Positions 6,223-63,958 of a stretch of DNA of 64,000 nt are shown in pieces. Source of the DNA: Eubacteriales bacterium. GTDB taxonomy: Bacteria > Bacillota > Clostridia > Oscillospirales > CAG-272. The stretch spans positions 5,254 to 69,253 of the forward strand of contig JAZSIF010000044.1 of NCBI GenBank assembly GCA_045533675.1, given 5' to 3'. The notes beneath the pieces are model-generated. The model was not told where the DNA came from. It ran no database searches and saw only the letters and a program-made list of their open reading frames with translations. A program made the position numbers and the translations under genes. Each line of letters begins with the position of its first letter. Position 1 is the first letter of the stretch.

Positions 6223-6266
6223 GACTCCGCTCTACGCGCACGCACGCAAGAGCGGAGTCTTTTATT
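6223..6266 (+). terminator. Rho-independent terminator
   Basis: GACTCCGCTCT (6223-6233) pairs with AGAGCGGAGTC (6249-6259), followed by TTTTATT. Confidence 0.8.
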
Positions 6267-6274
6267 ATTTGAAA

Positions 6275-6379
6275 ACGGACCGTCGAGGACGTCGGTCCCC
6301 AAAAGTAGGCACGCCATGTGTAGGACTTGATGTAAGAAAAAATTTGTGTGAAAGTTTTGCGCCGCTTTTTCAAAAGCGG
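6275..6379. repeat. F1 intergenic repeat, one-ended copy (hairpin-3 module plus right end)
   Basis: ACGGACCGTCGAGGACGTCGGTCC (6275-6298) also occurs at 63881-63906. AATTTGTGTGAAAGTTTTGCGCCGCTTTTTCAAAAGCGG (6341-6379) matches the right ends at 13969-14006, 42600-42636 and 47789-47828. Confidence 0.75.
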
Positions 6380-6408
6380 AAAAATTCACTCATAACTAAC
6401 GATCCAAT

Positions 6409-7233
6409 CTAACCCCTCTGCGTTTTCCGATACTCTCTCGGGCTTATCCCAAAGTTTTTTTTAAATATCTTCGAGAAATAATTGTAATCGGGGATGCCGC
6501 AACGGCGGGCGATCTCACTCACGGGGAGAGATGTCTCCCTTAGAAGGCGGCAGGCCACGGAGAGCCGTCTCTCCTTAATATGCTCGGCGGGTGTCGTCTC
6601 AAAATATTCCCGAAAGATGGAATAGATCTCGCTGTGGGATAGATGGAAATGGGTACAAAGCACACGGACGGTCAGCTCCTCGGTCAGATGCTCGTCCACG
6701 TAGGAGGAGAGGCGCAGGTCGATCTGCTTCTCGGCTCCTCTGGCTAGTGTTTTGAGGTATTCGTAGCCCGTACAGGCATCTAAAATTCGCATGGCGCAGG
6801 TGATCTTCTCCTCCTCGGTGGTGGGGAGCTGTCGAAACAGCGCGCGAAGGCTCTCTCGCCGTTCTGTGGGAATGCGCTCGGCAAGGTCCTCAAAATCCGC
6901 CTTCGGGTTCGATTTGATCTGTCCGATGGCGATATAGCCGATAATCCGATCGTCGTAGAGAATGGGAGAAATTCCCTCAATCAGCCCCGCGTGGCAGGTG
7001 TACACATACTGCCTGCGGGTCTTTTTGCATTGGGCGAAGGCATGGCGGTCGCAGGCTCGGCAACGCTCATTCATTTCCTCATCCTCTCGGAGCATGGCGC
7101 AAAAGGGGGTGAGCTTTTCGGGGTAAAAGCAAAGCTCGTTTTCCCCGCTGTCGTAAATGCAGATCTTGATTTTTGTCAGATAATAGAAATCGTGCAGGAG
7201 TTCCCGCATTTTTTTTAGATTATAGGTTTCCAT
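6409..7233 (-). CDS. AraC-family transcriptional regulator with PocR-like sensor domain
   Basis: ORF track 6409..7263. Cys-rich N-terminal sensor (CRACDRHAFAQC..YTCHAGL) and C-terminal AraC HTH (GISPREYR). Start set at ATG 7233, which has GGAG upstream. Divergent from the sugar cassette. Confidence 0.85.
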   Translation of the reverse strand: METYNLKKMRELLHDFYYLTKIKICIYDSGENELCFYPEKLTPFCAMLREDEEMNERCRACDRHAFAQCKKTRRQYVYTCHAGLIEGISPILYDDRIIGYIAIGQIKSNPKADFEDLAERIPTERRESLRALFRQLPTTEEEKITCAMRILDACTGYEYLKTLARGAEKQIDLRLSSYVDEHLTEELTVRVLCTHFHLSHSEIYSIFREYFETTPAEHIKERRLSVACRLLRETSLPVSEIARRCGIPDYNYFSKIFKKNFGISPREYRKTQRG

Positions 7234-13677: not shown

Positions 13678-13793
13678 GGATGCGGGTCGCTTTTGAAAAA
13701 GCTCCGCAAAACTTTTTATACAAATTATGGGTTATTTTAACATCACGTCCTATATAGGGTGTGCCGTATAACCTTTAGTTTTTCTCTAATGTA

Positions 13794-13847
13794 GAAAACC
13801 ATCGGACTGCATTGCTTGCGCATGCCACCGATGGTTTTCTTTTTTTT
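13794..13847 (+). terminator. Terminator hairpin (F1 hairpin-1 module)
   Basis: GAAAACCATCGG (13794-13805) pairs with CCGATGGTTTTC (13828-13839), followed by T8. Confidence 0.8.
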
Positions 13848-13860
13848 AATTCAATAAAAT

Positions 13861-13897
13861 GAAACCCGTCGGGACGCAGCAGGGTCCGACGGGTTTC
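13861..13897 (-). terminator. Terminator hairpin (F1 hairpin-2 module) for the minus-strand operon
   Basis: GAAACCCGTCGG..CCGACGGGTTTC. On the minus strand it is followed by ATTTTATT. The same hairpin occurs at 47683-47720. Confidence 0.7.
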
Positions 13898-14010
13898 TTC
13901 CTTAGAGAAAGAACAATAAGTTATTGTTTGCACAATGAAAAGGAACGTGTGTAAAACCGAGAAATCATTTGTATGAAAAGTTTTGCGCCGCTTTTTCAAA
14001 AGCGGCAAAT

Positions 14011-14041
14011 CGCATCCCCGCATCCCCGCATCCTCGCATCC
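14011..14041. repeat. 8-bp tandem repeat (CGCATCCY) x about 4
   Basis: CGCATCCC CGCATCCC CGCATCCT CGCATCC, between the two right-end motifs of the F1 copy. Confidence 0.9.
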
Positions 14042-30155: not shown

Positions 30156-30602
30156 ATGACTGAAATGACGTTGAACGAGAAGGCATCCTACATTAAGGGT
30201 CTGGTTGAGGGCATGGATCTTGACACCGCCAAGGGCGAGGGAAAGGTCATTGCCGCTCTGCTCGATCTGGTTTCTGATATGGCTGTTACCATTGAGGAGC
30301 TGGAGGAGGAAATTGATACCCTCTACGATTACTGCGAGGAGCTGGATGAGGACCTGGGCGAGGTTGAGACGATCCTTGTTGAGGACGACGACTGCGACTG
30401 CGACGAGTGTGACTGCGATTGCGACGATTGCGATTGCTGCTGCGATGAGGACGAGTTCTTTGAGATCGAGTGCCCCTCTTGCGGTGACACCGTGTACCTG
30501 GACGGCTCCATCGATCCCGAGGAGCTGGTTTGCCCCGCTTGCGGCGAGAAGTTTGAGTGCCTTGTTGCCGAAGAGGACCTGGAAGCCCTGGATCAGGAAT
30601 AA
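30156..30602 (+). CDS. Acidic protein with (Cys-Asp)n tract and C-terminal zinc ribbon (CD1247-N-terminal-domain-like)
   Basis: 148-aa ORF with GAGGAGG RBS. Contains DDDCDCDECDCDCDDCDCCCDEDE followed by CPSCG..CPACG. Sits immediately after efp. Confidence 0.8.
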   Translation: MTEMTLNEKASYIKGLVEGMDLDTAKGEGKVIAALLDLVSDMAVTIEELEEEIDTLYDYCEELDEDLGEVETILVEDDDCDCDECDCDCDDCDCCCDEDEFFEIECPSCGDTVYLDGSIDPEELVCPACGEKFECLVAEEDLEALDQE

Positions 30603-30618
30603 GAAAAAAGTACAAATC

Positions 30619-30654
30619 AAAAAGGAGTCGGTCGAATGACTGACTCCTTTTTGT
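30619..30654. terminator. Bidirectional terminator hairpin
   Basis: AAAAAGGAGTC (30619-30629) pairs with GACTCCTTTTT (30642-30652). A-run upstream and T-run downstream. Confidence 0.8.
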
Positions 30655-30678: not shown

Positions 30679-30942
30679 GTGTCATCTTGAGCGGAGCAAA
30701 CCATCCGGTGAATGGTTTGCGTAGTCGAACCCGACGAAAGGAGGGCAACGCGGCAGCGTTGAGATCTACGCGGATTGTTTGTTTTCAAGTCCCTTGTTTT
30801 GCGGAATATATTCTTTATGGCAAAAGGCTTCGGGTAAGTCATAGGAGATCCCGTCGTCGCCGATGGCTCCTCGGTTTTGGATCGGCTCGCGAGGCTCCCT
30901 CACCAAAACTTCGACTCCGCTCCGCTTCGCTCAGGATGACAC
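30679..30942 (+). mobile_element. F2 element copy 1: MITE-like structured repeat with GTGTCATCYTGAGCGRAG inverted termini
   Basis: GTGTCATCTTGAGCGGAG at 30679 and CTTCGCTCAGGATGACAC ending at 30942. The first 72 nt are identical to copy 2 (42283-42354). Internal hairpin GCAAACCAT-N7-ATGGTTTGC. No credible ORF. Confidence 0.6.
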
Positions 30943-31050: not shown

Positions 31051-32490
31051 TTAGCTTCTCGAATACAGCTCGCAAAGGGACTTGAACTTTTGGGGATCGG
31101 CGGAGCGGAGCTGGTCCTCGGTGATACGGTAGCGCCAGTTGTTGGTCGCCTTGCCCGGGGTGTTCATACGGGTGTCGGCACCGTACACGAGAATATCTTG
31201 CATGGGGAAGATCGCCAGATCCGCATGGCTTGCCATGACGGTCTTAAGAATCATTTCGCATCCGAGATTCCAGTCGTCGTCCTTGGCGTTACAGTAAGTC
31301 AGTACGCGTCTGCGGGAATCGGGGTCACATTCCCACACGTAGCCAAGCAGGGTATTGTTGTCGTGAGTGCCCGTATATGCCACACAATTTTTTACATAGT
31401 TATGGGGGCGATGCGGGGAATCGCTGTTGTCCATAAAGCCGAATTGCAGGACCCGCATGCCGGGAAATTTGCTATATTTTAAAAGATCGATAACCTCGGG
31501 GGTGATGTCCCCTAAGTCCTCGGCGATCACCAGACGGTCCTTGGCGACCTCTCGGATCGCGTTGACAAGCGCCCTGCCGGGACCCTTGACCCATTTTCCC
31601 TCCTTGGCGGATTTTGCCGCGGCGGGAATGCTCCAGTAGGATTCGATTCCACGGAAGTGGTCAATGCGAACACCGTCAAAAAGGGTGAGCATATATTCCA
31701 TGCGGCGGCGCCACCAGGAAAAGCCGCTTTTTTTCATGGCGCTCCAGCGGTAAAGGGGATTGCCCCATAGCTGACCGTCCTCGGAAAAATAATCGGGAGG
31801 ACATCCCGCTACCGCCGAGGGGTAGCCCTTGGCATCCAGCTGAAATTCCTCTCGGTTTGCCCATACGTCGGCACTGTCTGCCGCCACGTAGATGGGAATG
31901 TCTCCGATGATCTCAATGCCGCGGCGGTTGGCGTATTCCTTGAGAGACATCCACTGGGTAAAGAATTCATGCTGAATGAATTGCCAAAGCGCCAGCTCGT
32001 CCTCGTCAGGGGTCGTGATCGTCCATTCCTGCCAGGGAAGACCCCTGTTGGCTTTTTTGAGGGCGAGAAACTCCGATGCTTTTTGGAGCTCGGGATAGCT
32101 TTCAAGAAACGCGGCGATCCCACGCTTCTCCTCCTTGCTCACACGGGAGGCGGCAAGGGCGAGGAGAGCGAGACGCTCTTTTGCCAGTCGGTCAAACTCG
32201 CAGAGATAGGGAGAGCCTTGACGGGCACTCAAAACCTCTCTGTCGGTCAAAAGACCCTTGGCTCTCAGGGTGGGCAGATCAATAAAATAGGGGTTTCCGC
32301 CAAAGGCAGAATAGGATTTGTAAGGGGAATTGTATTCGTCGGTCATGCAAAAGGGCAGTACCTGCCATTTTTGAAAGCCGCAATCGGCAAGAAAATCCAC
32401 GAAGAAGCGGGCTTCCTTACCAAAGGAGCCGCAGGAATAGTCTCCGGGGAGAGAAGAGACGTGCATGAGCACGCCGGAAGAACGGTTCAT
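31051..32490 (-). CDS. malQ: 4-alpha-glucanotransferase (GH77 amylomaltase), paralog 1
   Basis: ORF track 31051..32700. AGGAGG RBS before ATG 32490 gives MNRSSGVLMHVSSLPG. GH77 motifs: NPYFID, RIDHFRG, GEDLG-like AEDLG, TGTHDN. Confidence 0.92.
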   Translation of the reverse strand: MNRSSGVLMHVSSLPGDYSCGSFGKEARFFVDFLADCGFQKWQVLPFCMTDEYNSPYKSYSAFGGNPYFIDLPTLRAKGLLTDREVLSARQGSPYLCEFDRLAKERLALLALAASRVSKEEKRGIAAFLESYPELQKASEFLALKKANRGLPWQEWTITTPDEDELALWQFIQHEFFTQWMSLKEYANRRGIEIIGDIPIYVAADSADVWANREEFQLDAKGYPSAVAGCPPDYFSEDGQLWGNPLYRWSAMKKSGFSWWRRRMEYMLTLFDGVRIDHFRGIESYWSIPAAAKSAKEGKWVKGPGRALVNAIREVAKDRLVIAEDLGDITPEVIDLLKYSKFPGMRVLQFGFMDNSDSPHRPHNYVKNCVAYTGTHDNNTLLGYVWECDPDSRRRVLTYCNAKDDDWNLGCEMILKTVMASHADLAIFPMQDILVYGADTRMNTPGKATNNWRYRITEDQLRSADPQKFKSLCELYSRS

Positions 32491-32519
32491 AAATGGTCCT
32501 CCTATTCGGGGGCTATGGA

Positions 32520-33515
32520 TTACAGCCCCGTAAGAAATTGAGCAAAGGCAATGATCATGGGCATGGTCGCTAAGGAGAAGAGAGAGGTCGTCCCCACCGC
32601 TTGTGCCGAGTAACCCGGGGAGATGTCGTACAGCTCCGCCAGCATAGATACGACCGTCGCCGAGGGCATGGCGCTGACGGTTGCCGCAAACAGGATCCAC
32701 GTCCGATCAAAGCCCAAGAGCCACATCAGGGTGACAATGGCAAGGGGAAGCGCCAAAAGCTTGATGACAGAGAGATAATAAATTTTACCCGAACCGAGAA
32801 TCTGTTTCCAGGTACGGGTTGCCAGCAGCGCGCCGATGATCAGGGTAGACACGGGAGCGCAGAGAGAGGCAACAAAGGAGAGTGCTTGCGTGACGGCGGG
32901 GGCGCAGGCACCAATGACACCGTTTACACCCGCGGGAAGATGGGGGACGAGAAGTCCCTTGGCAAGGAAAAGCACAATGCCGATGGTGCTTGGAATCGTA
33001 CCGAGATTCAGAAAAATCTTTTTGGGGGTCAGCTTGATATCCTTGCGGTTCCTACCAAGAATGAAAAGTCCCAAGGACCAGAGGAGCAGGTTGAAGATGA
33101 CTACGAAAAAGGCACCCATGAAGGCGCCGAGAGCGCCGAAGAGGGATTCAAGAATCGGAATGCCGATAAATCCCACGTTGCCGAAGACGGTGGCAAACTC
33201 GGAGATCTTTTTCTCGTTCAGATCGTGAAAACGAAAATAGACGACATAGGCGATTCCCGCCAGAACAAGATGCAGAACCAGTCCAAAGCCCATGATCTTG
33301 AAGCCGAGCAGAAGATATTCCTCGGTGTATTCCATGCGCACAAGGGAATAGACAATGAGGGCGGGCTGACCGAGGGTGATGATGAGACGAGAAAGATTCT
33401 TGGATGCCACCGAGGTGATGATGCCCACCTTGCCCGCAAAGTAGCCAACGGCAAGCATGAGAAAGAGGGCGGCAATGAGTGAGAAAAAGGGAAAGAGGTC
33501 CAACGCGCCGTTCAT
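32520..33515 (-). CDS. AEC-family (auxin efflux carrier) transporter
   Basis: 331-aa ORF with about 10 TM segments and an AEC/membrane-transport-family-like sequence. ATGA overlap with the upstream udg stop. Confidence 0.85.
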   Translation of the reverse strand: MNGALDLFPFFSLIAALFLMLAVGYFAGKVGIITSVASKNLSRLIITLGQPALIVYSLVRMEYTEEYLLLGFKIMGFGLVLHLVLAGIAYVVYFRFHDLNEKKISEFATVFGNVGFIGIPILESLFGALGAFMGAFFVVIFNLLLWSLGLFILGRNRKDIKLTPKKIFLNLGTIPSTIGIVLFLAKGLLVPHLPAGVNGVIGACAPAVTQALSFVASLCAPVSTLIIGALLATRTWKQILGSGKIYYLSVIKLLALPLAIVTLMWLLGFDRTWILFAATVSAMPSATVVSMLAELYDISPGYSAQAVGTTSLFSLATMPMIIAFAQFLTGL

Positions 33516-39727: not shown

Positions 39728-40557
39728 GAAAGAGAATGACCATGAATATCCACTCTCACGGGGGAGCGGATGACGGATATAAGCAAAAGGAGCTGGCGGA
39801 GTTTCTTCTGCGGGAGAGCCCCTCTGTGGTGGCGTTGCAGGAGGTCTGTCAGACAAGAAGCGCCCCTGTCCGTGAGCCGCCGAGGGGCTTTCGTGTGATG
39901 GGGGAGGAGATCCCCCTGCGGGAGGACAATTTTCTCTTAGGGCTCTTTGATCTTCTTGGGGGAGAATACGAGGCGGTGTGGCTTCCCGTCAAGGTAGGCT
40001 ACGGCACAAGAGACGAGGGGCTGGCGCTTCTCACCCGCTTTCCCGCGGGAGAGGCGAGGGAAATCCTCCTGACTCCCTACCGTCCCTATGAGGACTGGAG
40101 ACGGCGCTCGGCGCTGGCTGTCTCTGATCCCTCGGGCAGGGAATGGACGGTGTCCTTGCACATGAGCTGGTGGGAGGAGGGCTTTCTCTTGGAATGGAAT
40201 CGGCTCTCCGCCTCCCTTCGCGATGCGCCCTCGGTTTGGCTTATGGGAGATTTCAACCTGCCCTCTTGGCAGATGGAGAGGGAAGGGGACCCGCTTGCCC
40301 GTGAGGGCTATGCCGATGCCTTTTCCTTGGCAAAGCGGCGGGACGAGGAGGATACCGTGCTCCCTTATGCCGACGGTTGGCGGGAGCGGTCGGCGGGAGC
40401 GGACGGTTTGCGGATCGACGGGATCCGATGCCGCCCCGCTCGCCCCGTTCTCAGGTACCGCAGGATCTTTGACGGAAGAGAAGAGCCTGTCCTTTCCGAC
40501 CATTTTGGAATTATGATCGAAACCGAGGAGGATGAAGATGAACACAAACGCTCGTAA
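39724..40557 (+). CDS. Endonuclease/exonuclease/phosphatase-family protein, candidate maltose-6'-phosphate phosphatase (MapP-like)
   Basis: 277-aa ORF with ATGA overlap to the PTS stop. EEP motifs ALQEV, GDFN and SDHFG. The MapP call rests on context only. Confidence 0.7.
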   Translation: MRKRMTMNIHSHGGADDGYKQKELAEFLLRESPSVVALQEVCQTRSAPVREPPRGFRVMGEEIPLREDNFLLGLFDLLGGEYEAVWLPVKVGYGTRDEGLALLTRFPAGEAREILLTPYRPYEDWRRRSALAVSDPSGREWTVSLHMSWWEEGFLLEWNRLSASLRDAPSVWLMGDFNLPSWQMEREGDPLAREGYADAFSLAKRRDEEDTVLPYADGWRERSAGADGLRIDGIRCRPARPVLRYRRIFDGREEPVLSDHFGIMIETEEDEDEHKRS

Positions 40558-42040
40558 AGCGGGAGTCCTGCTCCCCGTCACCGCTCTGCCGTCTCCCTTT
40601 GGCATTGGGTGCTTCTCAAAAGAAGCTTATGAATTTGCGGACGCCTTGGCGGAAAGCGGACAGAGATATTGGCAGGTGCTTCCGCTTTCCCCCACCTCCT
40701 TTGGCGACTCTCCCTATCAATCCCCCTCCGCCTTTGCGGGGAATCCCTATTTCATTGACCTTTTCGGTCTTGTGGAGGATGGACTCCTTTCACGAAAGGA
40801 ATGCGAGGAAGCCCTTGGGGACGCGCCCGAGGATTATGTGGACTACGGTCTGCAATATGACAAAAGACTCCCCCTTCTGAAGCTGGCGGCAAGCCGCTTC
40901 CGAGAAAGGGAGAGCGAGGAATATCGAGAATTTTCAGAAAAGAATCAGGGCTGGCTTGACGATTACGCCCTCTTTATGGCACTGAAGGACTCCCTTGGGG
41001 GGCTTCCCTTGGCGCAATGGGAAAAGGGGCTTCGCCTTCGTGATCCGCAAGCGATTTCCGAGGCAAGGAAAAGACTCTCGGAGGAAATGGAGGTCTATCG
41101 CTTTCTCCAATTCCGCTTTTTTGAGGAATGGGGGCGGCTGCGGGCGTATGCCAATGAGAGGGGAATTCGTATCATCGGCGACCTGCCCATTTACGTCTCG
41201 GCGGACAGCGCGGACGTGTGGGCAAACCCCGAGCTCTTTTTACTGGACGGGGAGGGAGCGCCCCTTCGTGTGGCGGGCTGTCCCCCCGACGATTTCAGTG
41301 AGGGCGGTCAGCTTTGGGGCAATCCTCTCTACCGTTGGGACGCCCATCGGAGAGAGGATTACGCTTGGTGGCTTGCCAGACTTTCCCAAGCCTTTGAGCT
41401 CTTTGACACCGTGCGGATCGACCATTTCAGAGGCTTTGATTCCTACTATTCGATCCCCGCGGGGGACCCCGACGCAAAAGGAGGCAGATGGGAAAAGGGA
41501 ATCGGCGACGAATTTTTTCGCGTGGCAAGAGAGACGCTGGGCGAGAGGGAGATTCTTGCCGAGGATCTTGGCTTTACCACCGACTCGGTACGGTCGCTTC
41601 TTGAATCCTGTGGATTCCCCGGCATGAAAATCCTGCAATTCGGGTTTGGGGGAGAGGAGGGAGAGTATTCCTCGGAGGACCTGCCCCACAATTACCCCGC
41701 TCATTGCGTTGCCTACACGGGTACTCACGACAACGCTACCCTTTTTCAATGGCTCTCGGAGGCATCCGAGAAAGAAAAAAACAAGGTGCGGGAATATCTT
41801 TGGACACGGGAGGAATCCGTGAGGGCGCTTTCGGAAAGCCTGATTGCCGCCCTCATGCGCTCTCCCGCCGAGCTCTGTGTGGTTCCCTTACAGGACTACC
41901 TTGGACTTGGGAAGGAAGCCCGAATGAACGTTCCCGCCCGAGCCGTGGGAAATTGGCAATGGCGGGTGAGAGCGGAGGAACTGACAGAGGAGCTCCGGGA
42001 AAGGATTCGGAGATATTCAAAAATCGGCGGGAGGAGTTAG
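40538..42040 (+). CDS. malQ: 4-alpha-glucanotransferase (GH77), paralog 2
   Basis: ORF track 40532..42040. GAGGAGG ends at 40531, so ATG 40538 is favoured. GH77 motifs: NPYFID, RIDHFRG, AEDLG, TGTHDN. Confidence 0.92.
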   Translation: MNTNARKAGVLLPVTALPSPFGIGCFSKEAYEFADALAESGQRYWQVLPLSPTSFGDSPYQSPSAFAGNPYFIDLFGLVEDGLLSRKECEEALGDAPEDYVDYGLQYDKRLPLLKLAASRFRERESEEYREFSEKNQGWLDDYALFMALKDSLGGLPLAQWEKGLRLRDPQAISEARKRLSEEMEVYRFLQFRFFEEWGRLRAYANERGIRIIGDLPIYVSADSADVWANPELFLLDGEGAPLRVAGCPPDDFSEGGQLWGNPLYRWDAHRREDYAWWLARLSQAFELFDTVRIDHFRGFDSYYSIPAGDPDAKGGRWEKGIGDEFFRVARETLGEREILAEDLGFTTDSVRSLLESCGFPGMKILQFGFGGEEGEYSSEDLPHNYPAHCVAYTGTHDNATLFQWLSEASEKEKNKVREYLWTREESVRALSESLIAALMRSPAELCVVPLQDYLGLGKEARMNVPARAVGNWQWRVRAEELTEELRERIRRYSKIGGRS

Positions 42041-42192
42041 TTGGGGAGGTTAGTTGGGCATAGGAGAGGACGCGGGGACGCGGTCGCTTTTGAATAAGCT
42101 CCGCAAAACTTTTATTACAAATTATTTTTTGGGGTCCTACAATATCTCCTATTCCTTGTGTTCCGTGTAACTGAATGTTTTTTTCTAAGGTA

Positions 42193-42244
42193 GAAATCCG
42201 TCGGACTGCGAAGCTTACGCACGCCACCGACGGATTTCTTTTTT
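42193..42244 (+). terminator. Terminator hairpin (F1 hairpin-1 module) after malQ paralog 2
   Basis: GAAATCCGTCGG (42193-42204) pairs with CCGACGGATTTC (42227-42238), followed by T6. Confidence 0.8.
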
Positions 42245-42282
42245 GGAAAATAGTTTTTACGAAAGAGGGATTTGCCCCCGCC

Positions 42283-42527
42283 GTGTCATCTTGAGCGGAG
42301 CAAACCATCCGGTGAATGGTTTGCGTAGTCGAACCCGACGAAAGGAGGGCAACGAACCTCCAGTGAGTTGAGATCTCGGCGGATCGGTCGTTTTATGAAA
42401 TATAATCTTTGCGGAAGAAGGATTCGGATAAGGCTTTGGAGATCCCATCGTCGCCTGCGGCTCCTCGGTTTTGGATCGGCTCGCCGAGGCTCCCTCACCA
42501 AAACTTCGGCTTCGCTCAGGATGACAC
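42283..42527 (+). mobile_element. F2 element copy 2 (nested in F1)
   Basis: Same termini as copy 1, with 72 nt of identity at the left end and a close match at the right end (a few substitutions plus a 10-nt indel). Confidence 0.6.
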
Positions 42528-42672
42528 ATGAAGGAATGAAAAGTATAATCTATACGGTACACAAGGAATAGGAGATATTGTAGGACCCCAAAAAATAATT
42601 TTCGGAAAAGTTTTGCCGCGCTTTTTCAAAAGCGCGAAAAAACCTATTATCAACTAACTCCTCAACTAACCT

Positions 42673-43305
42673 CTACCTATAATCAAACCTCGACCCAATC
42701 TCCTGTGGCAGGTCCTTGCCGTAGCCCAGCTCAATGATTTTGGCGCGGAGGGATTCTCCCTCGGTGGCACGGACGGCGTAGCGGATACATACGTCGGCGG
42801 CGAAGTCGGTGCTGTCAATGAGCGCGCCTGCCGCGGCGAGAACCACCTGATATTTCCCGTACTCGGAGTAGCCGCAGCGCAGCTCGTATTCGGTGTAGGG
42901 CTGATAGGTAATGATGCCCCCCGCCTCAATGGCAAGGGATGCCGCGTGGGAGTAGGCGCGTACCAGTCCTCCCGCTCCCAACAGAGTCCCTCCGAAATAG
43001 CGGGTTACCACCACGGTCACGTTGCGCACTCCGCTCTTACGGATCACGTCGAGGACGGGCATTCCCGCCGTTCCTTGCGGCTCGCCGTCGTCCGAGTAGC
43101 GGGCAACCGCCTCGCCCCGCATCAGATAGGCAAAGACGTTATGGGTAGCGTCCTGATACTCCTTTTTCAGTCTCTTGACGAATGCCTGCGCCTCCTCCTC
43201 CGAGTCGGTTCGCAGCGCGTGACCGAGAAAGACCGAGCGCTTTTCCTCAAATTCTACGTGAGCCTCCTCACGGATTGTGGTAAAAAAATCTATATTCTCA
43301 CTCAT
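42673..43305 (-). CDS. yigZ: YigZ/IMPACT-family protein
   Basis: 210-aa ORF with KRSVFLGH..HNVFAY..DDGEPQGTAG..TRYFGGTLLGAGGL motifs. Confidence 0.9.
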   Translation of the reverse strand: MSENIDFFTTIREEAHVEFEEKRSVFLGHALRTDSEEEAQAFVKRLKKEYQDATHNVFAYLMRGEAVARYSDDGEPQGTAGMPVLDVIRKSGVRNVTVVVTRYFGGTLLGAGGLVRAYSHAASLAIEAGGIITYQPYTEYELRCGYSEYGKYQVVLAAAGALIDSTDFAADVCIRYAVRATEGESLRAKIIELGYGKDLPQEIGSRFDYR

Positions 43306-43318
43306 GGTTTTATCCTTA

Positions 43319-44197
43319 TCACTTTTTGATCATGCCGAGAAGCACTTGGGGAAGGGCGTCAATAAGATCACTTGCCATCACCGAATATTCGGTCAACGCT
43401 TCGGACGCCAGCTCGCCGCAACGCCCGTGGAGATAGACCCCGAGTCTTGCCCATATCAGCGGGTCGGACTCTTCCCGCAGACCGCCCGACAGAAGACCGC
43501 CGAGGATTCCCGAAAGCACGTCTCCCGAGCCCGCCGTCGCCATGCCGCTGTTGCCCGTCTTGTTTTCGTAGATCGTTCCCTTGCCGTCGGTTATGAGGGT
43601 GCGGTGTCCTTTGAGTACACAGACCGCTCCCGTTTGTTTGGCAAGAGCGGAAGCAGCCCCCGCGCGATTCGCCTCTACTTCGTCCGCGGTCCAACCCAAA
43701 AGCCGTGCCATCTCCATGGAATGGGGCGTCAGGATCGCTCCCTCGGTGTACTTAAAGAGAGAGGGATTCTTTGCCAAAAGATTCAAGGCATCCGCATCCA
43801 GCACGCGGGGCTTTTCCGCGCGGCGGAGCAAAAAGGAGAGAACGCGACGGGCGGCGGGAGAGGTTCCCATGCCGCAGCCGATCACCAATACGTCCGCCCA
43901 TTCCTCGGCTGCCGCCACGGTGTCAAGGTCTGGGTTGTCCCCGTCATAACCGCAAAGCAGAGCCTCGGGCAGAAGGGTGGCAAGAATCGGCAGGTTTTCC
44001 CGAACGGTCAATATCCTGCAAAGTCCCGCTCCCATGCGGTAGCATGCCTTAGCCGCAAAATAGGCGGCACCCGCCATGTCACGGCTTCCCGCCACCAGAA
44101 GCACCTTGCCGAAGGTCCCCTTGTGGGAGTTTTCTGACCGACGGGGGAGCAGGGAGGAATCTATCTCGTTGTCCAAAATCAAAGCGGTGTCGTTCAT
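43319..44197 (-). CDS. nnrD: ADP-dependent NAD(P)H-hydrate dehydratase
   Basis: 292-aa ORF. HKGTFGKVLLVAGS and GCGMG motifs, with a YjeF C-terminal-domain-like sequence. Confidence 0.9.
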   Translation of the reverse strand: MNDTALILDNEIDSSLLPRRSENSHKGTFGKVLLVAGSRDMAGAAYFAAKACYRMGAGLCRILTVRENLPILATLLPEALLCGYDGDNPDLDTVAAAEEWADVLVIGCGMGTSPAARRVLSFLLRRAEKPRVLDADALNLLAKNPSLFKYTEGAILTPHSMEMARLLGWTADEVEANRAGAASALAKQTGAVCVLKGHRTLITDGKGTIYENKTGNSGMATAGSGDVLSGILGGLLSGGLREESDPLIWARLGVYLHGRCGELASEALTEYSVMASDLIDALPQVLLGMIKK

Positions 44198-44316
44198 GGA
44201 GCGCTCCTTTTTTGCAATTCTGTTGTTATTTTACCACATTTATAAGGGAATGTAAAGAGAGTTGCCCGTGATTTTTCCCAAAAAAGAAGTTTATGAAAGA
44301 AAATTCCAAAAAACAC

Positions 44317-44345
44317 TTGACAAGAGAACGAAAATCAATTATAAT
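44317..44345 (+). promoter_or_regulatory. Sigma-70-type promoter for yceD-rpmF (TTGACA-17-TATAAT)
   Basis: TTGACA at 44317-44322 and TATAAT at 44340-44345. Confidence 0.65.
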
Positions 44346-44432
44346 GTGTAATGTCGCATTTTATGTCATCAAAAAAATGCGAGAAATTCGGATTCGGACG
44401 TGCCACCGATCCGAGCGGAAGGAGTGCGGTGT

Positions 44433-44966
44433 ATGATCGTGGACGTTTCTCCTCTTCTTAGCGGAGAGGTCAAGCAGCTGGACATTGATTATATGCTATC
44501 CCCCCAGACGCTGGACGGAGTGGTTTTTGAATCGGATGCTCACGTCACGGGCTGTATCACCGATCGCGCGGGATATATGCGCCTGACGCTGAGGGCTGAG
44601 CTGAACTATCACGGCGAGTGCGCGAGATGTCTTGCTCCTGTTGACGGAGTTTTCTCTCTTGACTTTGAGCGTACGGTTGCCACCGAGGGAATGCTCACAG
44701 ACCCCGATGCCGAGGAGATGCTGGACGAATACGTGGTGCTCCGCAAAAACGAGCTGGACGTGGACGAGGCGCTCAGAGAGGAGCTGCTCTTGGGATTCCC
44801 CATGAGATTGCTCTGCGACGAGGACTGTCCCGGTCTTTGCCCCAAATGCGGAAAGCCGAGAAGAGAGGGCGATTGCGGTTGCTCCGAGCGTGAGATCGAC
44901 CCAAGGCTCGCCGTTCTCAAGAATTTCTTTCATGACGAGGATGACGAGAAAGACGGAAGCAATTAA
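44433..44966 (+). CDS. yceD: YceD-family (DUF177) protein
   Basis: ORF track 44400..44966. AAGGAG RBS before ATG 44433. C-terminal CxxC..CxxC. Conserved position upstream of rpmF. Confidence 0.88.
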   Translation: MIVDVSPLLSGEVKQLDIDYMLSPQTLDGVVFESDAHVTGCITDRAGYMRLTLRAELNYHGECARCLAPVDGVFSLDFERTVATEGMLTDPDAEEMLDEYVVLRKNELDVDEALREELLLGFPMRLLCDEDCPGLCPKCGKPRREGDCGCSEREIDPRLAVLKNFFHDEDDEKDGSN

Positions 44967-45013
44967 ATTTATATAAACGAAAGTGTTATACACGCTTCAA
45001 GGAGGTGTAGATA

Positions 45014-45199
45014 ATGGCAGTACCGAAGAAGAAAGTATCGAAGGCTCGCAGAGACAAGAGACGCTCCAACGTATGGAAGCTCACCCTTCCCGGCATCAAC
45101 AAGTGCCCCAAGTGCGGAGAGTACGTTAGAAATCACTGCGTTTGCAAAGCTTGCGGATATTACGACGGCAAGGAAGTGCTCAAGGTCGAGAGCAAATAA
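45014..45199 (+). CDS. rpmF: 50S ribosomal protein L32
   Basis: 61-aa ORF with AAGGAGG RBS. MAVPKKKVSKARRDKRR plus a CxxC..CxxC zinc ribbon. Confidence 0.95.
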   Translation: MAVPKKKVSKARRDKRRSNVWKLTLPGINKCPKCGEYVRNHCVCKACGYYDGKEVLKVESK

Positions 45200-45259
45200 T
45201 TCAAAAGAGAGCGGCTTTGTTTCCATAACGAGCCGTTTTTCTTTTCATGAGGAAGTCTT

Positions 45260-45877
45260 ATGACGATCAAGCAGTTTTTGAAAACGGGAGCTGTCCTTTT
45301 GGCGGCGGCGCTCCTCGCCCTCTTCCTGCTTTCCTGCGCCGAGGAAGAGCCCGCTTCGCGGGCACCCTACGACGAGGAACGCATGTCGGACTATCTTTGC
45401 CCCGTCACCTACAAGGACTTGACGGTCACCGTGTCCGAGAACGAATCGAGGGGCGGGGCGGTATGGCGCGCGGTCCTTTCGGGAGTCACCGTCAGGGAAT
45501 ATCCTGAGGAGCAGGTGGCGTACTACCGAGAGCAGATTCAAAGACAGTATGAGTACCTCGCCGACCGCGAGGACATGAAATACGAGGACCTGCTCAGCCT
45601 GCGGGGGATGACCGAGGAAGCCATGCTGGAAAAAGCCCGTGACATGGTCAAGAGCGACCTTGTCTTTTTGTGGGTCGCGCGGGATGCGGGTATCTCGCTG
45701 TCCGAGGCGGAGAAAAGCGTCCATTACGACCGTTACGCGGACAAATACGTGGAGCGCCACGGCTATGACCGAGCCTACGTGGACGCCAATCTGCGGGAAG
45801 AGGTATATGCCTCCATGCTCTTCGATAAGACCATGGAATATCTGATTCTCCACAATTCATTGCAAGAAGAAGCATAG
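45260..45877 (+). CDS. Lipoprotein, unknown function
   Basis: 205-aa ORF. Signal peptide with lipobox LLS-C. Helical acidic body vaguely like trigger-factor/SurA chaperone modules. Confidence 0.7.
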   Translation: MTIKQFLKTGAVLLAAALLALFLLSCAEEEPASRAPYDEERMSDYLCPVTYKDLTVTVSENESRGGAVWRAVLSGVTVREYPEEQVAYYREQIQRQYEYLADREDMKYEDLLSLRGMTEEAMLEKARDMVKSDLVFLWVARDAGISLSEAEKSVHYDRYADKYVERHGYDRAYVDANLREEVYASMLFDKTMEYLILHNSLQEEA

Positions 45878-45889
45878 AAAGCAACAGTC

Positions 45890-46660
45890 ATGAAGATACT
45901 TGCCATCGGCGACGTGGTGGGGACCCGCGCCGTCGAATATTTGAAGGGAAACCTTTGGCGCGAGCGGGAGAAGCTTTCTGCGGATTTCGTGGTAGTCAAC
46001 GGCGAGAACGCTACCGATATTCACGGGATCTCGGGAAGGGACGCACAGGAGCTTTTGTCGGCGGGTGCCGATCTCATTACCCTTGGGAATCATACCTATG
46101 GGAGAAGGGACATCTGCGCGCTGCTCGGCGACTCGGAGGCGATCATCCGTCCCGCCAATTATCCGCCCTTAGCCCCCGGTGCGGGCTATATCATCCTCAA
46201 CGTGTCGGGCTGGCGGATCCTTGGGATCAACGTCATGGGAACGGCACTGATGGAATCCTTGGCTTGTCCCTTCTCCACCGTGGACCGTATTCTCGAACGG
46301 GAGCGGGGAAGCTATGATTTTGCCCTCATGGATATTCACGCCGAGACGACCTCGGAGAAGATCGCCCTCGGACGCTATTTTGACGGGCGTGTTGCCGTCA
46401 TGTTTGGAACGCACACCCACGTGCAGACCGCGGACGAGCAGATTTTGCCCAAGGGCAGCGGATACATCACCGATCTCGGCATGACGGGACCCACGGACGG
46501 CGTCATCGGAACCGACGCGGCATGCGTCATTGAGAAATTCCGTACCAAAATGCCCGTTCGCTTTCAAGTAGCGGAGGGCGCCATTCAAGCGCAGGGCGCG
46601 CTCTTTACCGTTGATCCCGATACCGCTCGGGTCACCGAGGTTCGACGGGTACGATTTTGA
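45890..46660 (+). CDS. ymdB: TIGR00282/YmdB-family metallophosphoesterase
   Basis: 256-aa ORF with MKILAIGDVVG..NGENA..GNH motifs. Confidence 0.9.
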   Translation: MKILAIGDVVGTRAVEYLKGNLWREREKLSADFVVVNGENATDIHGISGRDAQELLSAGADLITLGNHTYGRRDICALLGDSEAIIRPANYPPLAPGAGYIILNVSGWRILGINVMGTALMESLACPFSTVDRILERERGSYDFALMDIHAETTSEKIALGRYFDGRVAVMFGTHTHVQTADEQILPKGSGYITDLGMTGPTDGVIGTDAACVIEKFRTKMPVRFQVAEGAIQAQGALFTVDPDTARVTEVRRVRF

Positions 46661-46670
46661 GGAGGAAATC

Positions 46671-47063
46671 ATGGAACAGCCGCTGAATTCCTATTCCACC
46701 GCGTCCTTGGCGTATCTTGGAGACTGTGTCCTTGAGCTGTGCGTCCGAGAGCATTTGGTAAAGCTTGGGCTTTCCTCATCCGCAAGGCTCAACAAGGAGG
46801 CGCTGGAATACGTCCGTGCCACCAAGCAGGCAAGAGCCATGGAAAGAATTCTCCCCCATTTGTCCGAGGAGGAGGCGGCGGTCTTTCGCCGCGGCAGAAA
46901 TATCGGGCATACCAATACCCCGAAATCCGCGACGGTAGCCGAATACCGAAGCGCCACGGGAATGGAGACCCTCTTCGGCTATCTCCACTTGGCGGGCAGG
47001 CGGGAGCGGATTCAAGAGCTTTTTTTGCTGGCATACGGCGAAGAGGGCAAGGAACAAGAATAA
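46671..47063 (+). CDS. mrnC: Mini-ribonuclease III
   Basis: ORF track 46611..47063. GAGGAGG RBS before ATG 46671. LAYLGDCVLE RNase III signature. Confidence 0.88.
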   Translation: MEQPLNSYSTASLAYLGDCVLELCVREHLVKLGLSSSARLNKEALEYVRATKQARAMERILPHLSEEEAAVFRRGRNIGHTNTPKSATVAEYRSATGMETLFGYLHLAGRRERIQELFLLAYGEEGKEQE

Positions 47064-47108
47064 AATGATTTTGAAATAAACCCAAAGTGAAAGAAAGGAT
47101 AAAAGAAA

Positions 47109-47615
47109 ATGACAAATCCGATGATTCAGATCCAAGTAAGGGATTATGGAACGATGACTGCCGAGCTCTTCCCCGAGAAGGCTCCCGTGACCGTCGAGAA
47201 CTTTTTGAAGCTGATCGAAGAGGGCTTTTTCAACGGTCTGATCTTCCACCGTGTTATTGAAGGCTTTATGATTCAGGGCGGTGGCTACGACGAGCATATG
47301 GAGCATAAGGACACCGAGTCCATCGTGGGCGAGTTTACTCAGAACGGCTTTGAAGGCAATGACCTTAAGCACGAAAGAGGAGTGCTGTCCATGGCACGTA
47401 CATCCGATCCCAATTCCGCCTCCTCCCAGTTCTTTATCATGCACAAGAACGCGCCCCATCTCGACAATCAGTACGCAGGCTTCGGTATTCTGACCGACGG
47501 CTTTGACGTGCTGGATGCCATCGCCGCCGTTCCTACGGGTATCTACGGCTGGTATATGCAGGACGTTCCGAGAACTCCTGTGGTCATCGAGTCTATGACT
47601 GTGGTGAACAGATAA
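47109..47615 (+). CDS. Cyclophilin-type peptidyl-prolyl cis-trans isomerase
   Basis: 168-aa ORF with FHRVIEGFMIQGG and SQFFI motifs. Confidence 0.93.
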   Translation: MTNPMIQIQVRDYGTMTAELFPEKAPVTVENFLKLIEEGFFNGLIFHRVIEGFMIQGGGYDEHMEHKDTESIVGEFTQNGFEGNDLKHERGVLSMARTSDPNSASSQFFIMHKNAPHLDNQYAGFGILTDGFDVLDAIAAVPTGIYGWYMQDVPRTPVVIESMTVVNR

Positions 47616-47623
47616 GAGTACGC

Positions 47624-47828
47624 GGGTCTGCTTTTTTCCTCCGCTACGGTGCGGGGTACGCAAAACTTTTTTATTTAAAAAAGAAACCCGTCGGGACGCA
47701 GCAGGGTCCGACGGGTTTTTACCTTAGAGAAAAAAGTTTCAATGATAGAGCACACGATGCGTAGAACGTGATGGAATAAAGAGCAAAAATTTGTATGAAA
47801 AGTTTTGCCGCGCTTTTTCAAAAGCGCG
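47624..47828. repeat. F1 intergenic repeat copy (degenerate left end, hairpin-2 module, intact right end)
   Basis: Left end GGGTCTGCTTTTTTCCTCCGC..CGCAAAACTTTTTTAT. Right end ATTTGTATGAAAAGTTTTGCCGCGCTTTTTCAAAAGCGCG (47789-47828). Confidence 0.75.
47683..47720. terminator. Bidirectional terminator hairpin (F1 hairpin-2 module)
   Basis: GAAACCCGTCGG..CCGACGGGTTT, flanked by A6 upstream and T5 downstream. It lies between convergent ppiase and ylbJ-like genes. Confidence 0.8.
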
Positions 47829-47866
47829 AAAAAAACCTCATCTTAACTAACTCCCCACAACCCTCC

Positions 47867-51976: not shown

Positions 51977-52021
51977 GGGATGAAGAAAGAATGACCGAGG
52001 TTATCCTTGCTCGATGCAACC

Positions 52022-52224
52022 TGTCATCCTGAGCGAAGCCGAAGTTTTGTTGAGTGGAGCGTAAGCGCAACGATGCAAAACCGAGGAGCGATAGCGACGA
52101 TGGGATCTCCAAGGACTTACCCGTGTCATTCCTATTCGAAGAATATATTCTTTGAGGACGGAGGGATACGGAAACTCCTCAACAGATCCCTGCGAGCCTT
52201 ACGGCTCTTGCTTCGGGATGACAC
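52022..52224 (-). mobile_element. F2 element copy 3 (diverged, inverted relative to copies 1 and 2)
   Basis: TGTCATCCTGAGCGAAGC at 52022 and GGGATGACAC ending at 52224. The interior is roughly 75-80 percent similar by eye to the reverse complement of copy 1 (for example CGAAGTTTTG.., AAAACCGAGGAGC, GGGATCTCC, GACTTACCCG). Confidence 0.55.
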
Positions 52225-52272
52225 AGAGGGGGATGTGAGGTGGTTGTGGTTTGCGTTTGGAAAGGGACAAGT

Positions 52273-52554
52273 ATGTATTGTGTTTATATACTCACAAGTG
52301 AACAGAACACCGTCATGTATATCGGAGTAACAAATGACTTGTATCGACGTCTTCGAGAACACAATGCCGAAGAAATCCCGAGCTTTACTAAAAAATATCG
52401 GGTTCATAAGCTTGTCTATTTTGAAACCTATTCCGAAATAAACGACGCGCTCCATCGTGAAAAACAACTAAAGAGGTGGACTCGTGTCAAAAAAAATTTA
52501 CTTGTGGAATCCAAAAACCCCAACTGGGAAGATTGGGGAAAGAATTTTTTCTAA
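52273..52554 (+). CDS. GIY-YIG nuclease-family protein (small, UPF0213-like)
   Basis: ORF track 52240..52554. AAGGGA RBS before ATG 52273. Motifs YVYILTS..MYIGVTNDL..R..EH and REKQLKRW. Hand count gives 106 G+C in 282 nt. Confidence 0.88.
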   Translation: MYCVYILTSEQNTVMYIGVTNDLYRRLREHNAEEIPSFTKKYRVHKLVYFETYSEINDALHREKQLKRWTRVKKNLLVESKNPNWEDWGKNFF

Positions 52555-52587
52555 AAGAGATTTTTATAAAACAGAAAGAGAACAACT

Positions 52588-53475
52588 ATGAAAAAGACAG
52601 GATTTATCGCCATTGTAGGCCGTCCCAACGTGGGGAAATCGACGCTGCTCAATTCCATTCTCGGAGAGAAGGTCGCCATTGTGTCCTCCAAGCCCCAGAC
52701 CACGAGAAACCGCATCGCGGGAATCTTTACCCGCGGGGAGGAGCAGTTCGTGTTTTTGGATACCCCCGGCATCCACAGACCCAAGAACTCCCTCGGGGAA
52801 TACATGGTCAAGGCGGCGGACACTTCCATGCGTGAAGCGGATGCTCTGGTGCTGGTGGTGGACACGGGTAAGGATATTTCTCCCGTGGAGGAGAACGTGA
52901 TCGCCTACCTGAAAAAGAGCGGCATTCCCTCGGTGCTGGCGCTGAATAAAATCGATCAGGTCAACCGTGAGGAGCTGGCAAAAACCATCAGTCTTTATGC
53001 CGAAAAGCACGACTTCTCCGCCTTTGTGCCCATTAGCGCGCGGAGCGGAAAGAACGTCGGGGAGCTTTTGGACGAGTGCGCCAAATTCTTAGAGGAATCC
53101 CCTTGGTTTTTCCCCGAGGATATGATCACCGACCAGCCCGAGCGGCAGATTGCCGCCGAGATCATCCGTGAGAAAATTCTCCGTACCCTCAATAAGGAAG
53201 TGCCCCACGGCACGGCAGTGGTCATTGAGGAATTCAAGGAAGAGGGAAGTCTCATTCGCATCCGCGCCGAGATATTCTGCGAAAAGGCGTCCCATAAGGG
53301 AATTTTGGTGGGTAAGAATGGCGCGTCCTTAAAGCTCATCGGAACGTATGCCCGTGAGGAGCTGGAGAAGATGCTGGGTGTGAAGGTCTACCTGAACCTT
53401 TGGGTCAAGGTCAAGGAAAACTGGCGGGAAAGCGCCAGAACTGTCAGCAATTTCGGCTATCGTGACGAGGAATAA
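52588..53475 (+). CDS. era: GTPase Era
   Basis: 295-aa ORF. GRPNVGKST, DTPG and NKID G-motifs plus a C-terminal KH domain. Confidence 0.95.
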   Translation: MKKTGFIAIVGRPNVGKSTLLNSILGEKVAIVSSKPQTTRNRIAGIFTRGEEQFVFLDTPGIHRPKNSLGEYMVKAADTSMREADALVLVVDTGKDISPVEENVIAYLKKSGIPSVLALNKIDQVNREELAKTISLYAEKHDFSAFVPISARSGKNVGELLDECAKFLEESPWFFPEDMITDQPERQIAAEIIREKILRTLNKEVPHGTAVVIEEFKEEGSLIRIRAEIFCEKASHKGILVGKNGASLKLIGTYAREELEKMLGVKVYLNLWVKVKENWRESARTVSNFGYRDEE

Positions 53476-58086: not shown

Positions 58087-58181
58087 TTCCCCTCAAAAAT
58101 ATAAAATTTTCTTTTGATGGGCGGAGCCAACCTCGGAGAGCGTGTGGGCGGCGCCGTCGGAGAAAGCGGAGCAAAGCGAAT

Positions 58182-58280
58182 ATCATTATCATTCCCATTC
58201 CCATTATCATTACCATTATCATTATCATTATCATTATCATTTTCATTTTCATTATCATTACCATTATCATTATCATTATC
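58182..58280. repeat. Imperfect hexanucleotide microsatellite (NNCATT) x 16.5
   Basis: Unit series: ATCATT ATCATT CCCATT CCCATT ATCATT ACCATT ATCATT x4 TTCATT x2 ATCATT ACCATT ATCATT x2 ATC. Confidence 0.95.
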
Positions 58281-58595
58281 GGCTTTTTTGGGTTCTTGGG
58301 TTTTAAAATTTTGCCGTTTTTAAGGAGAAAATCCCCCCCTTTTTTTCTCTCAAAAAATGGCGGTATATCAAGCTTTTTCAAGCTTCTTGGTTTTTCGGCT
58401 CGAGAAGAAAACCCATTGGGTTATTGGGTTTTCAGCCCCCCAAAATCCCTGTGCTTTCTTACACCCATATTATACCACGAAAAAAGTCTCAAACCGTCTC
58501 AGTTAGTCTCACCTTATCTCAATGATTGAGAAAAAATTTAAGCGAGAAAAACCTCTTCTTCAACGAACGAATTTCTAAAAAAATCCCACATGCCC

Positions 58596-63730: not shown

Positions 63731-63958
63731 GTTCAAAAGCGGCGCAAAGCTTTTATGCGAATTATGAATTGACTTTACAATGGATGTGTTGTAAGGCTTG
63801 ATCGTTTGTCTCTAAAAAAGAAATCCGTCGGACCGTGTTGCTTCGAGCGCTGCTGACGGATTTTCTTTTTGTAATGGATAACGGACCGTCGAGGACGTGG
63901 GTCCGTATCGTGCCCCAAACAAAAGTTTGACGGTTTTGTGTACTTTTTGTGAGCTTTT
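63731..63958. repeat. F1 intergenic repeat copy (left end, hairpin-1 and hairpin-3 modules, degenerate right end)
   Basis: GTTCAAAAGCGGCGCAAAGCTTTTATGCGAATTAT at 63731-63765. Hairpin at 63820-63870. ACGGACCGTCGAGGACGTGGGTCCGT at 63881-63906, as at 6275-6298. Confidence 0.65.
63820..63870 (+). terminator. Terminator hairpin after trxB (F1 hairpin-1 module)
   Basis: AAATCCGTC (63821-63829) pairs with GACGGATTT (63855-63863), followed by TCTTTTT. Confidence 0.75.

Follow-up and report, generated by a model that had tools for sequence, protein, structure and literature searches.

Structured quasi-palindromic DNA repeats adjoining ssn-type GIY-YIG nuclease genes in gut Clostridia

The window analyzed here, a stretch of 64,000 nucleotides assigned to a Eubacteriales bacterium, carries three intergenic copies of a repeat designated F2, which range from 203 to 264 nt in length (Table 1). 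Copies 1 and 2 are solo elements, the first lying between two genes that converge on it and the second enclosed by a repeat of another family (family B), and copy 3, which is inverted and more diverged, shares the spacer between ybeY and era with a small gene, ssn, encoding a GIY-YIG protein. The three copies proposed in the preliminary description of this DNA were borne out by the sequence and by a family-profile search of the window, which returned exactly these copies and no fourth at E ≤ 10.

Table 1. Positions of the F2 copies, the ssn gene, and neighboring features in the window.
Feature	Position	Strand	Description	Search statistic
F2 copy 1	30679-30942	+	Solo quasi-palindromic element	nhmmer E 2.9e-42
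F2 copy 2	42283-42527	+	Solo element inside family-B repeat 42082-42642	Profile E 8.6e-40
F2 copy 3	52022-52224	-	Diverged, inverted element	Profile E 8e-38
ssn	52273-52554	+	93-aa single-domain GIY-YIG protein, presumed cognate ssDNA nuclease (from sequence)	
ybeY-era spacer	51977-52587	+	611 nt: ~45 nt, F2 copy 3, 48 nt, ssn, 33 nt	
148-aa gene	30156-30602		Flanks copy 1, converging on it	
GH77 gene	31051-32700	-	Flanks copy 1, converging on it	
GH77 gene	40532-42040	+	Flanks copy 2	
UPF0029 gene	42673-43305	-	Flanks copy 2	
Family-B repeat	6258-6386			
Family-B repeat	13685-14012			
Family-B repeat	42082-42642		Holds F2 copy 2	
Family-B repeat	47667-47834			
Family-B repeat	63735-63904			

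The element is bounded by inverted termini, TGTCATCYTGAGCG, as first described: GTCATCYTGAGCGRAG occurs five times in the window without a mismatch, copies 1 and 2 each carrying it at both ends and copy 3 at a single end, and the pattern TGTCATC[CT]TGAGC is found five times, compared with no occurrence in 30 dinucleotide shuffles. The second terminus of copy 3 is degenerate (TGTGTCATCCCGAAGC) and points to the ssn gene, 48 nt away; this copy also lacks the left-hand modules of the fold presented below (H1, the 5' strand of P2, and P3). Alignment of copies 1 and 2 confirmed the 72 identical nucleotides reported earlier, which form part of a common stretch of 78 nt with 97% identity, as well as the renewed similarity in the 3' third, which includes a 10-nt indel. 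The view that the copies contain no believable ORF also stands, the ORFs crossing them having given no match in a Pfam search. Relative to shuffles, all three copies fold more stably, with z values of -3.7 to -4.1 for RNA and -2.4 to -5.1 for ssDNA of either strand.

Further members were sought with a pattern of 22 specified bases, TCCTCGGTTTTG...CAAAACTTCG, conserved in all three window copies, in a scan that covered one genome per species. The scan yielded 105 stretches. These represent at least 25 assemblies of gut Clostridia, some of which contain as many as ~17 loci. Both termini were present in 69 of the 113 pattern matches (a number that includes the three window copies), at a length of 180-380 nt. 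The hosts are metagenome-assembled genomes (MAGs) of gut Clostridia, Oscillospiraceae, and Eubacteriales from ruminants and humans, the one exception being a match without termini in a Verrucomicrobiae MAG. The window itself derives from a bacterium of this kind, as the Era identities given below indicate. F2 is present in many copies in many genomes, and its members are non-coding, quasi-palindromic stretches of gut Clostridia DNA, ~200-300 bp in length. The 18-mer terminus alone was found on 41 IMG/VR contigs, with many matches inside short palindromic units of 70-100 nt, in whose fetched flanks no ssn homologue was detected; the bare terminus is widespread, yet it says little about F2. Searched as a string in full-text literature, the terminus matched unrelated primers only.

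An alignment of 39 full copies gave a consensus fold of 69 pairs. Its terminal stem, P1, comprises 14 bp (TGTCATCCTGAGCG/CGCTCAGGATGACA), is formed by the two termini ~200 nt apart, and encloses a branched fold composed of P2 (AGTCGAA/TTCGACT), the internal helices P3, P4, P5 (GGGATCTCG/CGAGATCCC), and P6, and P7 (GGTTTTG/CAAAAC), with a nearly invariant junction (ATCCCWTCGTCGC..CGCTCCTC) and optional hairpins, H1 and H2, just within either terminus. The apex of P6 is palindromic and marks the dyad center; what looks like a conserved loop in the central hairpin is palindromic in its own right (AGAATATATTCT) and forms that center. Both strands of F2 carry the head TGTCAT at the 5' end, positions 2-6 of which are invariant in the 39 sequences.

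The fold is supported by covariation. Among these 39 sequences, which are related to one another, 94.3% of the cells are paired, compared with 85.8% after shuffling, 28 pairs are changed on both sides (19.9 in shuffles), and 211 cells are compensatory (65 in shuffles), none of the 500 shuffles reaching any of the observed values. The covariation score was 0.221, compared with 0.090 for the shuffles (0 of 500) and 0.05-0.07 for slid controls. Compensatory changes are found mostly in P3-P6, and P1, P2, and P7 are kept as sequence, although for P7 and half of P2 the search pattern itself required this invariance. Template-switch repair of quasi-palindromes could imitate compensatory change.

Outside the TGTCA ends, many copies possess outer arms of a few recurrent types, which are combined in various ways on the left and right, and the flanks of F2 are often inverted outer arms. 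The CCCC run, described initially as lying outside the element, belongs to one outer-arm type of the family (compare AAAACATCCCCCCGC followed by GGTCATCC in L076, L077, and L058) and is neither external to it nor a target site. At four loci (L105, L061, L132, and L043), the terminal 9-mer GTGTCATCC or a near copy is present ~12 nt outside the true left terminus (in L105, GTGTCATCCACGGCTATG followed by TGTCATCCTGAGCG), possibly left over from a nested or tandem insertion. In L069, L071, L090, L099, L107, L114, L118, and L133 the head is of a variant form, TGTCATTC (matched by GAATGACA at the opposite end), which is invariably accompanied by an internal P5 variant, GGGATATGGC/GCCATATCCC; this combination either marks a subfamily or reflects co-evolution with a nuclease whose specificity differs.

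The gene adjoining copy 3 was overlooked in the preliminary description, which consequently missed the Ssn connection, the main explanatory fact. Its product matches Pfam PF01541 over residues 1-73 (E 6.9e-18) and has no DNA-binding extension; the database gene call (P0241) uses a GTG start at 52240 and predicts 104 aa. The Ssn family, reported from Neisseria and other mostly Gram-negative bacteria, comprises single-domain GIY-YIG proteins of ~94 aa (CDD cd10448) that bind a hairpin repeat solely as ssDNA, the Neisseria repeat being NTS (CGTCATTCCCGCGMAVGCGGGAATCYRG) and Ssn-associated repeats in general being termed SRMs, with a length of 20-50 nt (Chenal et al., Nat Commun 2025; PMC11893778). 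In vitro, Ssn proteins cleave ssDNA at a position located a few nucleotides 5' to the repeat; they are inactive on dsDNA, RNA, and the reverse strand, do not bind RNA, and in Neisseria depend critically for binding on a C after the NTS palindrome (PMC11893778). Repeats flank the ssn gene in 71% of homologues, and the authors liken the system to RAYT/REP and present mobility as a hypothesis only; their main text makes no mention of Clostridia, Firmicutes, or MITEs (PMC11893778).

The window protein shares 44% identity over 88 aa with N. gonorrhoeae SsnA (BLASTP, E 2e-25), and its Y5, Y16, and E63 align with the catalytic Y6, Y17, and E64 of SsnA. In a tblastn comparison with the N. gonorrhoeae ssnA locus (PLSDB) it gave E 2e-15, which lies within the E < 1e-10 criterion for ssn homologues (PMC11893778). 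The Neisseria ORF, which lies among seven exact NTS motifs, was taken as SsnA on the basis of its length of 94 aa, the residues Y6/Y17/E64, which are the catalytic ones of N. meningitidis SsnA, and the flanking NTS motifs. Given the homology to SsnA, this reference ORF, and the aligned catalytic residues, the window gene is an ssn gene and its product, judged by sequence, is a member of the Ssn family. A PDB sequence search with the window protein returned a single weak match, UPF0213 (1ZG2, E 4.5e-4), and the only NCBIfam match, to a group I intron endonuclease, is sub-threshold and reflects the generic GIY-YIG motif. The nearest ssn homologue found anywhere is 74% identical to the window Ssn. 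Close homologues (P0242-P0360), some of whose clusters have hundreds of members, are located mostly on contigs of 0.5-2.5 kb, as expected if flanking multi-copy repeats break short-read assemblies. The SsnA reference was taken from two PLSDB entries, NZ_CP119142.1 and NZ_CP119140.1, which are 2.17-Mb N. gonorrhoeae chromosomes filed as plasmids.

The association of ssn with F2 was assessed in two samples. In the first, which comprised 651 kb of loci fetched by the DNA pattern together with the window and searched for ssn homologues with phmmer, all eight homologues adjoin F2 and none is found elsewhere in that DNA. In seven of the eight, the gene lies no more than ~50 nt from the terminus of a full-length F2, and at L145 two short head-bearing repeats are placed between ssn and F2. 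F2 is upstream of ssn in six cases (in either orientation) and downstream in two. In the second sample, consisting of four further genomic contexts fetched through protein homology alone, an element of the form TGTCATYCTGAGC...GCTCAGGATGAC lies directly upstream of ssn in all four, as a full F2 in L159 and L160 and as a shorter element in L158 and L155. Every ssn homologue recovered thus abuts such an element. In the Clostridia loci the GTCAT head points to the ssn gene, as in the Neisseria arrangement NTS-ssnA-NTS; the ssn cassette of the window has an element on one side only. A further observation concerns L085, in which an F2 follows an ssn gene and the flank to the right of that F2 in element orientation (~6300-6490 in locus + coordinates) contains five small hairpins in tandem, each headed by GATATRCA (e.g., GATATACAGCCAGATGGGCTGAT), an array that resembles a REP/BIME-type cluster abutting the element.

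The preliminary description had left the choice between a conserved structured RNA and a conserved structured DNA. On an RNA reading, F2 would be a family of structured ncRNA genes whose helices serve to fold the transcript, and the adjoining GIY-YIG gene would be regulated by it as a leader or an sRNA. The clearly covarying multi-helix fold, the stability of the RNA folds relative to shuffles, and the position of the element in the 5' region of ssn in six of the eight homologues of the DNA-first sample would all suit such genes. However, the two strands fold equally well, with alifold energies of -117.0 kcal/mol for one strand and -117.5 kcal/mol for its reverse and 60 pairs in common; single-sequence energies favor the top strand in 12 of 31 cases, and wobble pairs, scored as G-T versus A-C mismatches, reveal no consistent strand preference. 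As ssDNA, the two strands of every window copy are likewise about equal in folding. Both orientations are found upstream of ssn. According to crude ORF-based gene calls, the 45 elements with two flanking genes are divided into 21 between convergent genes, which is about half, 11 between divergent genes, eight oriented with co-directional neighbors, and five oriented against them, and the last two numbers give F2 no orientation bias relative to genes. The Rfam scan that had been called for found no described element, with no match to the Rfam (15) covariance models at the gathering score over the whole window and only noise for copy 1 at E ≤ 10. The palindromic termini and apex are a property of DNA, and the characterized Ssn proteins do not bind RNA. 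A strand-symmetric fold, the lack of orientation bias, the palindromic termini and apex, and the lack of an Rfam match together point to folded DNA and not to a strand-specific transcript, so an ncRNA gene family is very unlikely. The structured nature of the element proposed earlier is supported, covariation being clear, and between RNA and DNA the evidence favors DNA that can fold on either strand. Two other structural readings were also rejected: pairing of the head with an internal GGGATC, which would make F2 an NTS with a giant loop (the ATTC head variant does not covary, and copies 1 and 2 have no GGGATC), and a hammerhead-like interpretation of CUGAGCG (the core is wrong, and Rfam gave no match).

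Orthologous sites in related genomes provide evidence of insertion. In three sets of close relatives, whose Era proteins are 96%, 90%, and 87% identical to that of the window, ybeY and era are separated by 30, 56, and 3 nt, respectively; the 96% match is an entry named "MAG: Clostridia bacterium" and the 87% matches are Oscillospiraceae entries. Compared with the 611 nt of the window, this spacing identifies copy 3 plus ssn as an insertion. The sites of the other two copies were compared with those of two syntenic relatives, L153 and L154, the latter being the same contig as that of the 96% Era relative. F2 is absent from the site of copy 1 in L153 and also in L154, which covers it in part, and the B element of L154 at the site of copy 2 has no F2; family-B repeats are present at these sites instead. 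At the covered orthologous sites of all three copies, the syntenic close relatives are therefore free of F2, which amounts to insertion polymorphism at all three. Together with the multi-copy family in many genomes, this absence supports the initial characterization of F2 as a recently mobile non-autonomous element. The ssn homologues are likewise situated in unrelated gene neighborhoods, and at different loci in related genomes. L159 and L160 encode identical Ssn proteins and have the same downstream genes (ICMT, HAD) but differ in their F2 copies and upstream genes, which indicates rearrangement or replacement with a breakpoint within the element. A clean insertion of copy 2 could not be derived from the family-B alignment, which is messy, one B hairpin appearing to have been replaced and not interrupted. 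Just after the ybeY stop, the left insertion junction (51980-52005, ATGAAGAAAGAATGACCGAGGTTATCC) loosely resembles the first ~25 nt of era, which starts at 52588 (ATGAAAAAGACAGGATTTATCGCC), and the resemblance could stem from a long target duplication that has since decayed, or from chance.

These properties, namely terminal inverted repeats of 14-17 bp, many copies, intergenic location, and insertion polymorphism, are also those of an ordinary MITE, that is, a deletion derivative of an IS mobilized in trans by a transposase, of the DDE type or another, that binds the terminal inverted repeats, with the GIY-YIG gene as a passenger or frequent neighbor. The element ends, however, are not accompanied by direct repeats, so that the earlier statement that there is no target-site duplication still applies, and this distinguishes F2 from classical MITEs, in which a direct duplication surrounds the terminal inverted repeats. 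Nor does a transposase-binding model predict internal helices that covary, and no gene other than ssn recurs at the termini. In ~715 kb of loci, inspected unsystematically, nothing longer was noticed that combined these ends with a transposase ORF. We therefore regard an origin as an ordinary MITE as unlikely.

A different kind of explanation would be a palindrome serving the host, such as a bidirectional terminator, an mRNA-stabilizing hairpin, or a site for a nucleoid protein, selected at the 3' ends of genes and linked with ssn only secondarily. The excess of F2 between convergent genes (21/45) would be expected of such a palindrome, as would the outer arms of several genomes, in which a 5' A-run is matched by a 3' T-run (AAACAAA...|...|...TTTGTTT) in the manner of a bidirectional intrinsic terminator. 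The window copies, on the other hand, have no T-run arms, and beside copy 1 there is a separate canonical terminator hairpin (30617-30654). Furthermore, the absence of F2 from the orthologous sites of close relatives makes it dispensable there, and the strict adjacency to ssn is left unexplained, which renders a host-serving palindrome improbable as the main account of F2.

Among known systems, F2 and its neighboring gene resemble Ssn and its SRMs most directly in the protein, a single-domain GIY-YIG of ~94 aa with the same catalytic residues and homology at E 2e-25, in the gene, which abuts a repeat whose GTCAT head is directed toward it, and in the repeats, which are multi-copy, intergenic, and hairpin-forming. 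The heads are also alike, TGTCAT in F2 corresponding to CGTCAT... in NTS and to HGTCWY... in the SRM pattern, with the head immediately before the stem in each. In contrast to the 20-50 nt of SRMs, F2 measures 200-300 nt, which is 5-10 times longer, its stem is built from two distant termini around a covarying multi-helix core, and both strands are headed. Its hosts are Gram-positive gut Clostridia, a group that goes unmentioned in the SRM paper, and for F2 orthologous sites with and without the element have been recorded, whereas mobility is only hypothesized in that paper. The published pattern, HGTCWYN(0-2)YYVSBRHN(0-5)WNVSBRGN(0-2)RNCYNB, found eight sites as a regular expression in a 3.2-kb Neisseria locus and had no match on either strand of the window (shuffle mean 0.54). 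Since the termini of F2 are fully palindromic, the C that follows the NTS palindrome has no obvious equivalent in them. For these reasons F2 is classed here as an expanded variant of Ssn-associated repeats that falls outside the published definition of SRMs.

F2 shares with the REP/REPIN-RAYT systems, reportedly described by Nunvar et al. in 2010 and by Bertels and Rainey in 2011, a low-copy nuclease gene flanked by palindromic repeats that are thought to be its substrate, repeats arranged as inverted dimers and able to fold as ssDNA, intergenic copies numbering in the dozens, and BIME-like mosaics. It differs in being several times longer than a REPIN and in its partner, a hydrolytic GIY-YIG nuclease and not an IS200/IS605-like HUH Y1 tyrosine transposase, so that there is no covalent strand-transfer chemistry. 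With the MITE-like Correia, ERIC, and BOX elements it has in common a length of 100-300 bp, inverted termini, intergenic location, a modular interior, and strain-variable presence. Correia elements make a TA duplication, whereas F2 has no target duplication, covaries internally, and is accompanied by a dedicated nuclease gene.

We consider it probable (roughly 0.7) that F2 is the cognate ssDNA-folding repeat of the window Ssn and that nicking guided by its heads, followed by host repair or recombination, alters its copies. Replication, repair, or uptake, among other processes, would expose single-stranded DNA, in which either strand of F2 would fold. By analogy with the characterized proteins, Ssn would then bind the head and stem and nick a few nucleotides 5' of the head, that is, at the boundary of the element. 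Host repair or recombination at such nicks would change copy number and position, giving rise to solo elements such as copies 1 and 2 and to one linked with the nuclease gene, copy 3. We infer cleavage of the F2 termini by the window Ssn from this analogy, and, further, that cleavage may drive the spread of F2 and may entail a benefit or a cost for the host. A hydrolytic GIY-YIG nuclease is incapable of strand transfer or ligation alone, which leaves the copying step unexplained, and recognition of a site of ~30 nt does not account for the conserved internal helices P3-P6.

A bolder interpretation, which we advance only tentatively and think doubtful, is that F2 and ssn constitute a self-contained, undescribed mobile unit, in which a hydrolytic, ssDNA-specific GIY-YIG nuclease spreads large structured quasi-palindromes by nicking folded single strands, without HUH, DDE, or recombinase chemistry. 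Were this so, copying would require the covarying internal helices, and the insertion between ybeY and era would supply the first natural example of the states before and after such an event. A categorically new system is not implied by F2-ssn, since the nuclease-repeat partnership was published in 2025. F2 is an undescribed, far larger, and structurally elaborate variant of the Ssn repeat-nuclease partnership in a different phylum, and not a new RNA.

The partnership of Ssn with repeats is thereby extended to abundant gut Clostridia. Because the published SRM pattern misses covarying repeats of 200-300 nt, pattern-based censuses under-count such systems. The filled and empty orthologous sites, including the repeat and nuclease cleanly inserted at the conserved ybeY-era junction, offer concrete substrates for tests of movement, and the protein and its element provide a new nuclease/site pair for ssDNA tools. 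On a practical level, F2 repeats break metagenome assemblies and spawn spurious ORFs.

The surroundings of F2 in the window contain several further repetitive features. Family B is characterized by inverted ends, CGCTTTTGAAAAAGCnCCGCAAAACTTTT...AAAAGTTTTGCGCCGCTTTTTCAAAAGCG, around one or two terminator-like hairpins (GAAAnCCGTCGG...CCGACGGnTTTC), and B copies are also found at orthologous intergenic sites of L153 and L154; the B repeat that hosts copy 2 is context and not part of F2. A segment of ~4.9 kb (42673-47615, from the UPF0029 gene to a peptidyl-prolyl isomerase gene) is inverted relative to L154 (11981-16849), with breakpoints at the B repeats 42082-42642, which holds copy 2, and 47667-47834. 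The two GH77 genes are inverted paralogues encoding 4-alpha-glucanotransferases, and an F2 copy is located just past the 3' end of each; the two copies point the same way and so do not belong to an inverted segmental duplication. Finally, positions 58169-58288 consist of imperfect 6-nt repeats (TATCAT/TACCAT/TTTCAT) extending over ~120 nt.
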